Positions 4,930 through 61,547 of a DNA stretch of 64,000 nt are shown here, piece by piece. Under the pieces are notes generated by a model. That model saw only the letters and a list, made by a program, of their open reading frames with translations, was not told where the DNA came from and made no database searches. The position numbers were made by a program, and so were the translations under genes. Source of the stretch: Methanobacteriota archaeon (GTDB lineage: Archaea; Thermoplasmatota; Poseidoniia; Poseidoniales; Poseidoniaceae); contig PSPR01000021.1 in the NCBI GenBank assembly GCA_004195515.1, forward strand, positions 867 through 64,866, written 5' to 3'. Each line of letters opens with the position of its first letter. Positions within the stretch are counted from its first letter, which is position 1.

Positions 4930-5715
4930 TTGATGTGGAAAACCCCTTTTGCGGTTTTGATTCCTGTGCTACTTCTCACAGGATGCGTCGGCATTAATGA
5001 GCCACCAGAGCCTACAATCGATACGATATTTGGCCTCGATGGGGCGGATTGGGCGAATCACTTTGAAAAAGATGAAAATAATCAAACCGAGGCCCACCTG
5101 AAACAACTCTCCATAGAATTCGACTCGAAATCATTGATTAACAAAACCATTGTTGAATATTGGTTGGACCCTGGCGATGGCAGTGAAACGATACGAATTG
5201 ACGCAACTCAGGGCAATGTGATCAATTATACCTACACTGGGTATGGCGCGTTTATGGCTCGGTTTGGAGCCGTGGATGATGCTGGAAATACAGATACAAT
5301 GCCCCGTTCTGTCTATGATTGGCCAGCGTTACTCCGACATGGAGAATATTTCCTGAATGAAACATTTGTTGACCAACCTAGCAATCTGTACATCGATTCT
5401 CCGAATCCTAACTCTGTAGGCTCCCCAGAAAGGATAAGTATTGAATCAAGAATTGCGAATCTTTGGGGTTGGCCGATAATTTCTGAATCTGTTGATATTA
5501 CTTGGCTTTTAATCGGCCCAGATGGCGAAGAAGTGGCTTCTCACACCGAGACGATTCAAGGTGGTAATGATTTCACTTGGGAATTCAACCTTGAAAATCC
5601 AGAACGAGGAAGTTGGGAGTTGATTATAGATAGTTCAGTGGATTCTAGTTTGAATCAAGAAACCTTTTTCCGCCTAGGATATGGTGGATTTGTGTACGAT
5701 ACAAGTGAATTATAA
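4930..5715 (+). CDS. Secreted lipoprotein with a PKD-like domain
   Basis: The signal peptide carries the lipobox 'LLTGC'. 'WLDPGDGSE...YTYTGYGAFMARFGAVDDAGNTD' matches the PKD-domain signature. Confidence 0.55.
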   Translation: MMWKTPFAVLIPVLLLTGCVGINEPPEPTIDTIFGLDGADWANHFEKDENNQTEAHLKQLSIEFDSKSLINKTIVEYWLDPGDGSETIRIDATQGNVINYTYTGYGAFMARFGAVDDAGNTDTMPRSVYDWPALLRHGEYFLNETFVDQPSNLYIDSPNPNSVGSPERISIESRIANLWGWPIISESVDITWLLIGPDGEEVASHTETIQGGNDFTWEFNLENPERGSWELIIDSSVDSSLNQETFFRLGYGGFVYDTSEL

Positions 5716-5744
5716 ATCCCCACTCCTTTCCACCATCGACCGCC

Positions 5745-6608
5745 TCAAGCAGTCGGAGAACCCATTTGGAATTGGGTCATCCCCAAGTCCTGATAGATTT
5801 GCGGCATTACGCCGTTTTTAGAATAGAGATAAAGAGCAGTAACCGCAACTTGCTCGGCAGCATTGGTCCAAGCGATTGCAATGGCGACTCCACATACTCC
5901 GAGTGCTAATCCGACGTACCATAGTGGACCTAATACGGACATCAACACAAACGTAAGGATTACGATCACAACGACGAAAAATCCCCCGATTAGACCAATT
6001 CCTAGGCCCGAGGTAATATTTTCTCCCCAAGATTTGTGAAACATTTGCTTACTTGATTTCAGACTTTCACCAACACTTTTGTTTTCGATAATCATGTGCG
6101 GTATCATGAAAAAGGTCATCATCCACCAAACCGCGGCTCCAATTGCGGTCAGAATCATTGCAAATATTGCAGATCCACCTTTCTGATTTCTCGCAGCCTG
6201 GTTCAAAACCTTCAGCAACAAACCGACCGTTCCGGCAATTACTCCCCAGACAATAATAATATGAATTTTGCTCATTGCTGCCGACACGCCATCCATAAAT
6301 TTGGGGTCTCCTCCTGTAAGCCTAATGTGTGAATTGGCCACTATTGCACTATTCCAAAAAGTCACGACGATCGAGAGGGTCATATATCCAACAAATACGA
6401 ATCCCATATACGCAGGCGTCATCTGTTCTTGAGAATCTATCGCCCATGATTGCTTAAGATATTGAGGTGCACTCATCCCAATCATTGCTATTAGGCTCAT
6501 AAATCCACAAATAAACATGTAAACGATTAGTTCAGGATCTTTCTTAACCACAGACATGCTCAACTTGCTCATTTTCCAGCCGCGGCCAATCGTGTCAAAA
6601 AATCCCAT
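5745..6608 (-). CDS. Multi-pass membrane protein (DUF6159-like)
   Basis: 287 aa with about 6 TM helices. The N-terminus 'MGFFDTIGRGWKMSK' resembles the DUF6159 family as I recall it. Confidence 0.55.
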   Translation of the reverse strand: MGFFDTIGRGWKMSKLSMSVVKKDPELIVYMFICGFMSLIAMIGMSAPQYLKQSWAIDSQEQMTPAYMGFVFVGYMTLSIVVTFWNSAIVANSHIRLTGGDPKFMDGVSAAMSKIHIIIVWGVIAGTVGLLLKVLNQAARNQKGGSAIFAMILTAIGAAVWWMMTFFMIPHMIIENKSVGESLKSSKQMFHKSWGENITSGLGIGLIGGFFVVVIVILTFVLMSVLGPLWYVGLALGVCGVAIAIAWTNAAEQVAVTALYLYSKNGVMPQIYQDLGMTQFQMGSPTA

Positions 6609-12102: not shown

Positions 12103-12110
12103 TATTTAAG
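12103..12110 (-). promoter_or_regulatory. TATA-box-like element (TTAAATAG) about 26-28 nt upstream of the tRNA-Asp 5' end
   Basis: The plus strand reads 'cctatttaag'. The spacing to position 12078 fits the archaeal TATA-to-TSS distance. Confidence 0.5.
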
Positions 12111-58347: not shown

Positions 58348-59391
58348 GTGGCCATAGGACCCGGTATGGATTTGATGTCGGCCGCCTGGATGGTGCGAGA
58401 ATTGGGTCAACCTGTAAGCGCTCTTCATTTGGGCAAAGACGGTTCGATAATCGCTGGAGGCTGGGACGGGATGGTAAAATCCTGGGATGGCGAGGGCACT
58501 ACTTTGTGGCAAGTGGAATGCGGCGATAGGGTGGAGGCGATCTTAGTGGTGAATGACTTGACATTTCTGACTAGCGGTTTGGAGGTGGTTTGTATCGAAA
58601 ATGAGAAAATTAGTTGGACTCATGCCTTGGAAGGTTCTGCTGACATGCTTTGTCTTCACCAAGACAATCTCATCGCAACTTCAAGTGTATACGACATCGA
58701 GCATGGAGATTTCATGGAGAGTGCGATCTGGCGTTTTGCATTTGCTGGTGAACTTATCTCCGTTGATAGGATGGACGAGCGCCCTTGGTTTGTCGAATCA
58801 AACGATAGTTTAATCCTGGGTCTTGGACGTCCCCGCTGTGGAATTTTATTGGATGAAAAACACATCGAATTAGCAACCGAATCCCCGGTTACTTGTGGAG
58901 TAACAGGGCGTAGTATGACCCTTTTAGGCCATGCTGATGGAACGATTTCACAAAGCGATGGTGAACTTGTTTCGGTTGAAGAATCAACGGTGGATTCGAT
59001 AATCTGTGCAGAATATGGCTTTGTTTCAGCTTTAGAAAATGGAAATTTAATCGCCAGAAATGCTGACGCATCACCACTTTGGTCTGCTACCGGTTCAACC
59101 ATCACTTGCCAAACCGAGGGCTTTGACCAAACTCATTGGGTTGGAAGATGGCAAACTATTTCTGGTATTTTGGAAGTTAGAGATAGTAGCGGAGAGATCA
59201 TCACTAAAATGGAAACAAGCAAACCAAGAGTAGCAGTCAATGAAAGCGATCGGGTTGGATTTGGATTTGACGATGGCCAAATTTTGATATGGGATAAAGA
59301 ATTGTTCTTACGTCGAAAAGCGGCAGAAAAACCAGCGGCAAATTCTGCAAATTCAGCATTGGCAGCAAGATTGAGATCTTTGCGGAAATAA
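58348..59391 (+). CDS. WD40/PQQ-like beta-propeller repeat protein
   Basis: 'IIAGGWDGMVKSWDGEG' and repeated Gly/Asp-turn blades. GTG start; ATG 58366 is an alternative. Confidence 0.6.
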   Translation: MAIGPGMDLMSAAWMVRELGQPVSALHLGKDGSIIAGGWDGMVKSWDGEGTTLWQVECGDRVEAILVVNDLTFLTSGLEVVCIENEKISWTHALEGSADMLCLHQDNLIATSSVYDIEHGDFMESAIWRFAFAGELISVDRMDERPWFVESNDSLILGLGRPRCGILLDEKHIELATESPVTCGVTGRSMTLLGHADGTISQSDGELVSVEESTVDSIICAEYGFVSALENGNLIARNADASPLWSATGSTITCQTEGFDQTHWVGRWQTISGILEVRDSSGEIITKMETSKPRVAVNESDRVGFGFDDGQILIWDKELFLRRKAAEKPAANSANSALAARLRSLRK

Positions 59392-59499
59392 TGTTATTTA
59401 TCGATTAATAATTCCAGTAGATTCAGTGGAAACTATCAGCGCAGACCCTCGTTTCCGATGGAAAAGAGACCTAATTAACCGTAAAGTTTATTTGCCCCC

Positions 59500-60145
59500 T
59501 CCTCCCAAAGAGAGATTGTCGCTCCCCCGGGAGTGATGGAGGACCCTCCGGGGTCTTCTGGGACCCTTGCCAACTGGCTCTTTAGCCCGAACTGGGTAAA
59601 GTGTTGGTCACAATGTTTGGAGACGAGCAGAAGTGAGGCGAAATAAAGCAAAGAAAATCTTCGGATATGACGAGCTTCATTTCACCCGCAGGAAGATCCA
59701 CCCGCTTCGGCAATGGTGGTGAAGCTGGCAGAACTCCTGCAAAGGAGGTCTGACAGAAATGAGGAAATGGGTTTGCGGCCTTCTGGGCTTAGCGAATAAA
59801 ATCTCAAAGACTGTGAAACCGTTGGACAAAGTGCTAATATGGGCGAGACAGATGTTTACTCATCGACTTCAACCTAAGTAACTGGACAACACCCCGGCTG
59901 TCGAGAAGAGGGCCGATTCTGGCAACAGGATTAGTTAACGATCTAGGAAGATATTCTCCTTCGGGAGAATTGTCGGAATAGTGAAGGCGACTCGGCAGCC
60001 ATCAGCGGAGGCTGGCAGGGGGGCGGATATCCCACCCGGATGAAACCCCCCTGCCAGTTCTCCCACCCTGCTCACACAGGTAATTCAGGGTCCTTTCATT
60101 CCGCTTATGATTCTTGAGGGCGCGGATTACTCGCGCGCCCCGGTT
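59500..60145 (+). ncRNA. Candidate large structured non-coding RNA of unknown family
   Basis: It lies in a 764-nt gap with no ORF of 60 aa or more in six frames. There are three C(UUCG)G hairpins (59657-66, 59698-719, 59953-70), a perfect 12-bp helix 60012-23/60046-57, and a GC hairpin 60118-40. Boundaries and strand are provisional. Confidence 0.4.
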
Positions 60146-60155
60146 TGGAAACCAT

Positions 60156-61547
60156 TCAATTAGAGCCAGTCATTTCCTCAGGTTTAACCCAAAGATCGAA
60201 TTCTTCATTGGTTAAATATCCTAATCCAAGAGCAGACTCTCGCAGCGTCAACCCATTTTGGTGGGCGTTTTTTGCTATTTTTGCAGCATTATCATAACCG
60301 ATGTGATTATTGAGAGCGGTTACCAACATCAATGAATTTTCCAAATGATTGGCGATAACTTGTTCATTCGCCTCTAAACCTTCAACACAGCGGGTTGTAA
60401 ACGAAGTCATCGAATCCGAAAGCAATCTAATACTATGCAAGAAATTATGAATCATCATTGGTTTGTAGACATTTAATTCAAAATTTCCTTGACTGCCACC
60501 AATGGTGGTCGCACTATGGTTCCCCATGACTTGAGCACAAACCATGGTCAATGCTTCGGCTTGAGTTGGGTTGACCTTGCCCGGCATTATCGACGAACCA
60601 GGTTCGTTAGCAGGTAGGGATAACTCGCCGAAACCACAGCGTGGGCCCGATCCAAGCCAGCGGATATCGTTGGCGATTTTCATCAAACTCACAGCTAAGG
60701 TATTGAGGGCGCCACTAGCTGAGACAATCGCATCATGAGCGGCCAATTGGGAAAATTTATTCGGTGCACTAACAAATGGCAAGCCGGTCTTATCGGCGAT
60801 AGCAGCAGCTACTTTTTGCGCGAACTCAGGATGGGTATTGAGCCCGGTTCCAACCGCGGTTCCCCCTAGGGCTAATTCCAAGAGGTCAATACTGGCGAAT
60901 TCGATTCTACGAATATTTGCTTCCAATTGAGCAACCCACCCGGAAACCTCCTGGCCTAATGTAAGCGGCACTGCGTCCATCAAGTGAGTTCTACCTATTT
61001 TGACGATATCTTTCCATTCATTTGATTTTATATGCAACGCGTCCTTTAACGTGCAAAGGCTTGGCAATAAGGCATCGGTAATAGCCTCAGAAGCAGCGAT
61101 ATGCATTGCGGTAGGAAAGGTGTCATTGGATGATTGAGCCCGGTTGACATGGTCGTTTGGATGGACAGGAGTTTTGCTTCCCAGCACACCACCGGCCATT
61201 TCGATTCCACGGTTTGCTATCACCTCATTGCTATTCATATTGGATTGAGTCCCGGAGCCGGTTTGCCAAATTTTCAAAGGAAAGTGTTCATCGAGTTTGC
61301 CTGAGATAACCTCTTCTGACGCAGCGATTATCAATTTTGAAACATCGGGATCTAATTGGCCCAATTCGCAGTTAATCATGGCTGCAGCCTGCTTGAGAAT
61401 GCCAAAAGCACGAATCACTCCTCGTGGCATCAAATCATCACCAATATCGAAGTTTATCAGTGATCTTGCAGTTTGGCAACCGTAGTATTTTTCAGCAGGA
61501 ACTTCGAGTTCACCCATAGTGTCTGCCTCGACACGCGTCTCGCCCAT
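60156..61547 (-). CDS. fumC: Class II fumarate hydratase
   Basis: '[13 protein letters not shown]' is the fumarate-lyase signature. '[10 protein letters not shown]' is also present, and the length is 463 aa. Confidence 0.93.

Follow-up and report, generated by a model that had tools for sequence, protein, structure and literature searches.

To our knowledge, structured RNAs longer than ~400 nt are rare, and nearly all of those that have been studied are either ribozymes or the core of a fundamental machine, as in rRNA, RNase P, and the self-splicing introns. The remaining large structured RNAs, such as OLE, GOLLD, and ROOL, are unsolved puzzles, and every orphan large RNA that we know of is bacterial or phage-borne. 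Here we analyzed a 64,000-nt stretch of DNA (hereafter, the window) from a Methanobacteriota archaeon assigned by GTDB to the family Poseidoniaceae of the order Poseidoniales (Marine Group II, MGII), corresponding to positions 867 to 64,866 on the forward strand of contig PSPR01000021.1 (GCA_004195515.1), and focused on a spacer between two convergent genes at window positions 59392-60155. This spacer is very probably a stand-alone gene for a large, MGII-specific (Poseidoniales) non-coding RNA (ncRNA), which lies on the plus strand, has its own predicted promoter, and most likely acts in trans.

Among the described systems, OLE RNA of Bacillota is the closest analogue in kind. Like the MGII RNA, it is encoded by a stand-alone gene, at ~600 nt, has many helices set among highly conserved nucleotides, is confined to one lineage, and has a function that cannot be deduced from its context. 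OLE RNA has a bacterial host, an adjacent partner gene (oapA), and a conserved operon, whereas the MGII RNA is archaeal, has no oapA equivalent, and sits with its own predicted promoter between convergent genes; the MGII RNA also showed no sequence or structure match to the Rfam model of OLE. GOLLD and ROOL are giant ornate RNAs of bacteria and phages that form homo-oligomeric cages, and OLE, GOLLD, and ROOL all form homo-oligomeric complexes (PMC12286853). GOLLD and ROOL share with the MGII RNA a large size, a multi-domain organization, peripheral hairpins that vary, and tetraloops that are conserved, and by analogy an RNA-only assembly may be possible for the MGII RNA as well. Unlike them, the MGII RNA has no Rfam match and no match in viral contigs, and it occupies a fixed chromosomal locus.

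A full-text literature search for prior descriptions of such an RNA in MGII or Poseidoniales found only Hou et al. 2016. That study reported canonical, Rfam-detectable RNase P RNAs (292-306 nt) and signal recognition particle (SRP) RNAs (305-315 nt) in MGII, together with Thalassoarchaea ncRNA 1 (Tan1), an orphan of 229 nt with a "complex secondary structure" that was highly abundant in a Red Sea metatranscriptome and had only five BLASTN homologues, of 75-79% identity, all from Thalassoarchaea (PMC5069720). Tan1 is the only structured orphan ncRNA previously reported from MGII, and in being such an orphan it resembles the RNA studied here. As described, the two differ: the MGII RNA is 630-910 nt long, and its core blocks are more than 90% identical across the order, so a BLASTN search with Tan1 should have found more and closer matches. 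That Tan1 is identical with part of this RNA, which would weigh on novelty, is rather unlikely.

A conserved structured RNA at a fixed locus in Marine Group II

The spacer separates a plus-strand gene, referred to here as the WD40-like gene, from the convergent gene for fumarase C (fumC). For the synteny route to homologues, DNA was fetched around WD40-like homologues of 79%, 63%, 55%, 51%, and 44% identity; those homologues that carried a source name were labelled Marine Group II, Poseidoniaceae, or Thermoplasmatota. Gene order was unchanged at all five loci, where the gap before fumC was larger still (~800-1000 nt), and the spacer alignments consisted of near-identical long blocks at both ends with a variable middle. 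A degenerate pattern derived from the long 3′ hairpin was then used for searching GTDB species representatives, metagenomes, and viral contigs. The pattern matched 26 contigs of GTDB species representatives, all from Poseidoniales or "Euryarchaeota/Methanobacteriota archaeon" metagenome-assembled genomes (MAGs), including some labelled MGIIa or Poseidoniaceae and one labelled Thalassarchaeaceae, as well as 77 metagenome contigs; no viral contig matched. We obtained 68 distinct full-length copies of 634-913 nt from MGII MAGs and metagenomes, with the window copy as the shortest. The locus is fixed: wherever the flanking sequence was long enough to tell (79 loci), the WD40-like gene lay on one side of the RNA and fumC on the other, and the long hairpin ended exactly 97 nt before the fumC stop codon in nearly all of these loci. 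The window itself contains a single copy.

Single-sequence folding of the window copy gave a z-score of about -3.4 against shuffles on each strand, a modest and merely suggestive margin, and hence picked no strand. Since both strands scored equally, the window alone is not decisive, and the decisive evidence is comparative. We used an alignment of 39 representatives (at most 96% identical, 962 columns), for which RNAalifold produced a consensus of 137 pairs; compensatory double changes occurred at least once in 72 of these. As controls, we shuffled the columns (500 times) or slid the 3′ partners by 1-3 columns. The proportion of cells that were paired was 96.8%, compared with 89.0% in the column shuffles and 39-46% with slid partners. 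The 72 pairs changed on both sides compare with 41.2 ± 3.0 in the shuffles, none of the 500 reaching 72, and with 17-29 for slid partners, while the number of cells changed on both sides was 443, compared with 112.6 ± 10.6 (0/500) and 32-72, respectively. The best-supported helices were the GAGA-loop hairpin (59614-59629), the base of the long hairpin at 59637-59686, the GCAG/CUGC helix (59688-59691/59737-59740), the closing helix of the 3′ domain (59896-59905/59991-60000) with its two inner hairpins, and many hairpins of the variable region.

The same alignment identified the strand. G-U cells numbered 621 and A-C cells 55, pairs were canonical in 96.8% of cells when read on the plus strand and in 86.0% when read on the minus strand, and several consensus pairs were invariant G-U. 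The excess of G-U over A-C places the RNA on the plus strand. There is thus an RNA of conserved structure at this locus, in agreement with the initial annotation, which had been made from the window sequence alone and had assigned to the gap a probable large structured RNA, of no known class, on the plus strand. Its choice of strand, inferred from UUCG loops, was right, and every hairpin that it listed was found in the sequence where it had been placed; the UUCG, GC-rich, and 12-bp hairpins recur in homologues, and those within conserved regions carry compensatory changes. The covariation check on homologous spacers that it had proposed came out above the controls, as described above, and its reading is further supported by the G-U asymmetry between the strands, by a conserved promoter of archaeal type, and by the lack of any Rfam match.

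The gap was also confirmed to be free of larger open reading frames (ORFs). It measures 764 nt between a plus-strand ORF ending at 59391 and a minus-strand ORF ending at 60156, and the largest ORF within it has 58 aa, with none of 60 aa or more. According to a rough reading of the list of ORFs of at least 90 aa, the next-largest spacers in the window are ~200-310 nt long, and two of them contain tRNA genes. The G+C content of the gap region is 0.48-0.56, compared with 0.39-0.43 in the DNA just upstream. The upstream ORF (347 aa) has no Pfam domain itself, and its homologues have weak matches to PQQ/WD40 beta-propeller domains, from which we took the name of the gene. The downstream ORF contains the Lyase_1 and FumaraseC_C domains of fumarase C.

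The RNA belongs to none of the known families. We searched the 4227 models of Rfam 15 at the gathering threshold against the window and six homologous loci, at E≤10 against the gap, and at E≤1 against two long variants, and found nothing credible at any of these settings, either in the window copy or in the seven other copies covered; at the gathering threshold, the whole window yielded two tRNAs, both outside the gap. This covers the comparison with RNaseP_arch, Archaea_SRP, and the large ncRNA families that the initial annotation had suggested. The archaeal RNase P model (RF00373) gave no match at any of the three settings, and the archaeal SRP model (RF01857) gave no plus-strand match in the gap at E≤10. 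The sole match within the SRP clan was a 23-nt hairpin on the minus strand, with 16.4 bits against a gathering score of 65 (E=0.17). The models of OLE, GOLLD, ROOL, HEARO/omega RNA, and raiA gave no match at any threshold used, nor did those of group I and group II introns.

Predicted promoter and ends of the transcript

Archaeal promoters consist of a transcription factor B recognition element (BRE) and a TATA box at a set distance before the transcription start. In all 60 evaluable distinct copies, the distance from TTTAT to the first G of the 5′ hairpin downstream was exactly 31 nt; CG(T/A)AA(A/G/C)N stood before TTTAT, and the G is preceded by T. We infer that CG(T/A)AA(A/G/C)N-TTTAT is a BRE/TATA element predicted to start transcription at or next to G59518. 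A local example of promoter spacing, which we used for reading the RNA gene, is provided by the tRNA-Asp gene of the window, whose clear TATA box TTAAATA (12103-12109, minus strand) has its center ~28 nt before the mature 5′ end. In 67 of the 68 full-length copies, the segment from the 5′ hairpin to the long 3′ hairpin contained no TATA-like hexamer, and an internal T5 was found in none of the 68. Downstream of the long hairpin, homologues have a run of three to six T (T3-T6) at a distance of 63-84 nt, and the window has TTT at 60143-60145, after the GC hairpin. These signals point to a single transcript of ~630 nt, extending from 59518 to ~60146. Its 3′ end, predicted at the T-run, is the least certain boundary; the segment 60118-60146, which comes within ~10 nt of the stop codon of fumC, encoded on the opposite strand, is probably where the transcript ends.

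Archaeal transcription terminates at oligo-T runs. By analogy, the T-rich stretch that follows the stop codon of the WD40-like gene, of which ATGTTATTT is conserved in aligned homologues, is probably the oligo-T terminator of that gene. Two further conserved elements precede the promoter. Within upstream element 1, CAGTGGAAA was found nowhere else in the window, and the element is a putative regulator binding site or 3′ untranslated region (UTR) hairpin. The second element is a palindrome, whose exact sequence TTTCCNNTGGAAA occurs only once in the window; both of its halves are invariant and thus offer no covariation to tell a DNA-level from an RNA-level role. Element 1 and the palindrome may both be binding sites of transcription regulators. 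A regulon for the upstream palindromes was considered and set aside, as there was no further occurrence in the window.

Architecture of the RNA

The RNA is predicted to fold into more than 20 helices, with a conserved 5′ domain, a variable middle, and a conserved 3′ domain centered on a 57-nt hairpin that is near-invariant (Table 1). In the 5′ terminal hairpin, a C-to-U change specific to the window is compensated by a G-to-A change (CG:38, UA:1). The GUUGG of the junction has two possible partners, CCAAC (59570-59574) and CCAGC of the 3′ domain, both of which are invariant. Helix 8, which carries the GAGA loop, was the top-scoring helix of the covariation scan, with all five pairs covarying. 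All four pairs of helix 9 were compensatory (GGCG/CGCC, GGUG/CACC, GAUG/CAUC, and AGUG/CACU), and helix 10 occurred as ACAG/CUGU, GCAG/CUGC, GUAG/CUAC, and AUAG/CUAU in the alignment.

The middle has a mean identity to the window of only 0.19. Relatives carry up to ~280 nt more in this region, made up of UUCG-capped hairpins joined by purine-rich linkers of the GGAAAC type, and helices 12-19 are covarying UUCG-capped hairpins. In three long variants (L017, L019, and L068; A3 columns ~390-560), the stretches that separate the inserted hairpins hold a purine-rich motif, GGAAACCG / GGAAACGGAC / GGAGACGGACC, in three to five copies, whereas the window RNA has no copy of the GGAAACCG-type motif; such repetition suggests modular duplication. 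In the window, UAUGG (59838-59842) and CCUAAG (59873-59878) correspond to both strands of the classic 11-nt receptor for GAAA tetraloops and lie roughly opposite each other in a predicted helix. As the motif is missing from the nearest relative (L001) and is flanked by weak pairing, it may be due to chance.

In the 3′ domain, changes on both sides were found in four, five, and five pairs of helices 20, 21, and 23, respectively. The GNRA tetraloops conserved among homologues are GAGA and GMAA. The long hairpin consists of GGAGG and a 12-bp GC-rich helix (60012-60023/60046-60057), a CGGA/AAA internal loop, an inner stem UAUCC/GGAUG, and a CACCC loop, and it covaries by G-C to A-U at two pairs and by U-A to A-U in the inner stem. 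Together with its flanks, it is 93-97% identical to the window in synteny-found copies whose flanking protein is 51-79% identical, and 77% identical in the most distant copy. The 12-bp helix is invariant on both strands, which suggests a constraint beyond pairing, such as sequence-specific recognition by a protein or alternative pairings. A covariance model of the 3′ core including the tail (R1) matched the window at 59988-60120 with 156.6 bits.

With respect to long-range pairing, two alignments led RNAalifold to conflicting helices (CCUUG/CACAGG, CAGG/CCUG, GUUGG/CCAGC, and GG/CC), and the covariation scan supported only local helices, the ACAG/CUGU helix, and the closing helix of the 3′ domain. 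The CCUUG/CACAGG helix was rejected because it clashes with the covarying ACAG/CUGU helix. A reading of the conserved loops as K-turn, H/ACA, or C/D-box motifs was considered by eye and found unsupported.

Table 1. Features of the MGII RNA locus, in window coordinates (MFE, minimum free energy)
Feature	Position	Strand	Basis or remark
T-rich stretch TGTTATTTATCG	59392-59403	+	Directly after the WD40-like stop codon
Upstream element 1: TTCCAGTAGATTCAGTGGAAA in the window, TTCCAGTGGA..CAGTGGAAA in most relatives	59412-59432	+	Conserved columns
Palindrome TTTCCGATGGAAAA (TTTCCGATGGAAA; TTTCCGNTGGAAA)	59452-59465	+	Nearly invariant, upstream of promoter
Predicted archaeal BRE and TATA box, CGTAAAG TTTATTT (CGTAAAGTTTAT)	59480-59493	+	Fixed spacing in homologues
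RNA gene, predicted ~630-nt transcript	59518-60146	+	Covariation, G-U strand bias, promoter spacing, T-run
5′ domain	59518-59740	+	Conserved
5′ terminal hairpin GUCGCUCC/GGAGUGAU	59518-59537	+	Helix 1: 99.7% of cells paired, two invariant G-U pairs
Hairpin 2, GGAGGACCC..GGGUCUUCU	59538-59559	+	Helix 2: both-side changes in 6/8 pairs
Highly conserved, almost invariant junction: GGGACCCUUGCCAAC, small hairpin, AAAG, GUUGG	59560-59607	+	Conserved columns
Small covarying hairpin GCCC-GAACU-GGGU	59585-59597	+	Helix 5: GCUC/GAGC, GCCC/GGGC, GUCAG/CUGAC types
Helix UCAC/GUGA enclosing hairpin with invariant GAGA (GNRA) tetraloop (59620-59623)	59608-59636	+	Helices 7, 8
Long hairpin tipped by C(UUCG)G, AUC(UUCG)GAU (59657-59666)	59637-59686	+	Basal helix 9
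Helix GCAG (59688-59691)/CUGC (59737-59740), part of conserved CACAGGA motif	59688-59740	+	Helix 10
UUCG hairpin CCACC..GC(UUCG)GC..GGUGG, enclosed by helix 10	59698-59719	+	Sequence
Variable central region	59741-59895	+	Alignments; window fold from constrained MFE only
3′ domain (59896-60120), first part	59896-60000	+	Closing helix 59896-59905/59991-60000
GNRA hairpin (GCAA, 59922-59925)	59911-59936	+	Within closing helix
Conserved AACGAUC strand within 3′-domain closing helix	59896-60000	+	
UUCG hairpin, perfect AUUCUCC(UUCG)GGAGAAU at 59953-59970	59950-59974	+	Within closing helix
Near-invariant 57-nt long hairpin	60007-60063	+	Helices 24, 25: 100% paired
Conserved 3′ tail CACCCUGC..CACAGGUAA..CGCUUAUGAUUCUUGAGGG	60064-60120	+	Conserved columns; pairing poorly resolved
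GC-rich hairpin (60118-60140) and short T-run (60143-60145)	60118-60146	+	Hairpin sequence itself unconserved

Alternative explanations

Several points weigh against reading the spacer as one stand-alone gene for a trans-acting RNA. Most homologues were gathered by the pattern of the long hairpin, which inflates the apparent conservation of that hairpin; the copies found by synteny agree with them. In three more distant MGII lineages (L039, L041, and L043; WD40-like protein 40-45% identical), the RNA is missing from this locus: the WD40-like gene either abuts fumC, with a single base between them in L041 (5080-5082), or has other neighbors, and the covariance model of the 3′ core gave no match on these three loci. 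Accordingly, either one clade gained the RNA or other clades lost or relocated it. The 3′ terminator signal in the window is weak (TTT), and both predicted ends of the transcript are read from sequence signals. No covariation-proven helix joins the 5′ and 3′ domains, the candidates (GGGACCC with the 3′ tail, and GUUGG/CCAGC) being invariant or inconsistent. Finally, the proposed function is drawn by analogy with other large structured RNAs.

The missing link between the two conserved domains would also fit a pair of independent, adjacent RNA genes separated by a variable spacer, one for the 5′ domain and one for the 3′ domain, as would the poor conservation of the middle. The initial annotation had listed this possibility, which we judge improbable. 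The copies share a single invariant BRE/TATA, whose distance is fixed with respect to the 5′ domain only; internal T5 runs are absent and internal TATA-like hexamers nearly so, as described above. Moreover, the middle is not junk, as shown by its covarying hairpins, and the two domains always occur together and in the same order.

The spacer could instead act in cis, either as an extended, structured 3′ UTR belonging to the WD40-like gene or as a structured insulator or terminator block between the convergent genes, and it does lie directly downstream of the WD40-like gene on the same strand, at a nearly constant distance from the fumC stop codon. We regard this as very improbable, because a T-rich run follows the WD40-like stop codon and a conserved BRE/TATA stands between that gene and the structured part, and because lineages in which the two genes are 1 nt apart manage without the RNA. 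A length of 630-910 nt with more than 20 helices and near-invariant internal loops also goes far beyond what a terminator needs.

Self-splicing introns resemble the RNA in size and in their GNRA-rich, modular architecture, and modules have been gained and lost in its middle, as might be expected of a remnant or domesticated mobile RNA, for example a group I or group II intron lacking an ORF or a guide RNA associated with a transposon. Such an origin is scarcely probable given the lack of Rfam matches to group I and group II introns and to the omega and bridge-RNA families. The RNA occurs once per genome, always at the same intergenic locus, interrupts no gene, has no transposase, reverse transcriptase, or nuclease gene nearby, and is absent from viral contigs.

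It is hardly conceivable that the RNA is the RNase P or SRP (7S) RNA of the organism in a very divergent and expanded form, which the initial annotation had raised as another possibility. The RNA has roughly the size and density of helices that this would require, strings partly resembling CR-I/CR-V of RNase P and helix 8 of SRP RNA are present, and the window contains no other RNA of either kind, as expected by chance at this window size. Archaeal RNase P RNA is likewise large and structured, with GNRA loops and its own promoter (predicted for the MGII RNA), and archaeal SRP RNA likewise has long GC-rich helices and a stand-alone gene. Of the two RNase P-like strings reported in the initial annotation, both exist in the window sequence. 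The columns of ACAGAAA...GGCUUA are unconserved in homologues, however, and AGGAAGAUCC is kept only in part beyond its invariant CAGGA, so the P4 strands (GGAAAGUCC ... ACAGAAnnnGGCUUA; CR-I/CR-V) have no conserved counterpart. The MGII RNA is also two to three times longer than archaeal RNase P RNA and lacks the helix-8 GNAR loop and symmetric-loop signature of SRP RNA, and its invariant motifs match no universal motif of either. Together with the absence of RF00373, RF01857, or clan matches, the canonical RNAs of both kinds in MGII (PMC5069720), and the MGII lineages in which the locus lacks the RNA, these findings led us to rule out both identities. The evidence favors the remaining suggestion of the initial annotation, a new class.

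That the ORF scan overlooked a protein-coding gene or decayed pseudogene is a negligible possibility, in spite of the ORFs that gene callers placed here in some assemblies (113 and 107 aa in L001) and of stop-free minus-strand frames of up to 269 codons in some homologues. The longest stop-free frames vary in strand, frame, and length among homologues, and the long minus-strand frames arise because the plus strand contains only 16.6% T. Variability along such a frame was 0.447/0.409/0.388 at codon positions 1/2/3, with no excess at the third position, and 97 of 107 pairwise indels were not multiples of 3. Neither the ORFs of the gap nor the gene-caller ORFs of a relative had a Pfam match. A database search with the pseudo-protein encoded by such a frame returned only 42 sporadic, length-inconsistent clusters with at most one "hypothetical protein" label, compared with 240 consistent matches for the WD40-like neighbor. 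The compensatory changes and the G-U asymmetry point to an RNA on the plus strand, opposite to the long minus-strand frames. The RNA is non-coding, and the pseudogene reading, which the initial annotation had named as a way to refute its own, was not borne out.

Proposed role and relevance

In the stand-alone RNA gene that we propose, transcription of the plus strand would start from its own BRE/TATA, at or next to G59518, and most likely end at the short T-run just before the convergent fumC. The middle of the RNA would gain and lose UUCG-capped hairpins, so that its length is ~630 nt here and up to ~910 nt in relatives. The RNA would then most likely act in trans, as a stable molecule with a compact fold that serves a lineage-specific ribonucleoprotein (RNP) as its scaffold or active RNA, or that forms an RNA-only assembly. 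Its fold, GNRA loops, near-invariant internal loops, expandable periphery, and inferred promoter resemble those of compact ribozymes, RNP cores, and RNA assemblies such as RNase P, OLE, GOLLD, and ROOL. By this analogy, a trans-acting RNP scaffold or ribozyme-like RNA is the most likely role, any specific biochemistry being of low confidence, and a cis-regulatory role on the neighboring genes is less likely.

The RNA appears to represent a new class of large structured RNA, whose closest analogues are the bacterial orphan large RNAs and not any archaeal family. The chances seem evenly balanced that it founds a new class of very large ornate ncRNAs in Archaea, being Poseidoniales-specific, 630-910 nt long, and built on a near-invariant core that is a ribozyme or the heart of an undescribed RNP. 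If true, an RNA of this size found order-wide in MGII would carry the category of orphan large RNAs into Archaea, in a host that is among the most abundant archaeal groups of the surface ocean. Its core is conserved more strongly than the neighboring proteins, and its periphery is modular and expandable. The RNA is a concrete target for RNA biologists.

The RNA is also relevant to genome annotation and assembly. Hypothetical proteins of 107-271 aa are sporadically called over it on either strand, including those at L001:5355-5696 (113 aa) and 5689-6012 (107 aa), at L002:5301-5696, and in clusters P0121-P0162. These look like misannotations caused by the T-poor plus strand. The short contigs found through such spurious ORFs were ordinary genomic fragments with flanking genes and gave no evidence of expression.

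Contigs from metagenomes often start or stop at the long hairpin; in six of them (L056, L060, L069, L074, L088, and L100), the match to the hairpin pattern begins within 1-30 nt of a contig end. This near-invariant hairpin seems to interrupt assembly in the way that rRNA genes do, presumably because its sequence is identical in MGII populations that occur together. One MAG, PL36311bin_9, has two contigs (L022 and L023) that each carry the RNA, which probably reflects strain heterogeneity in the bin and not a true second copy.

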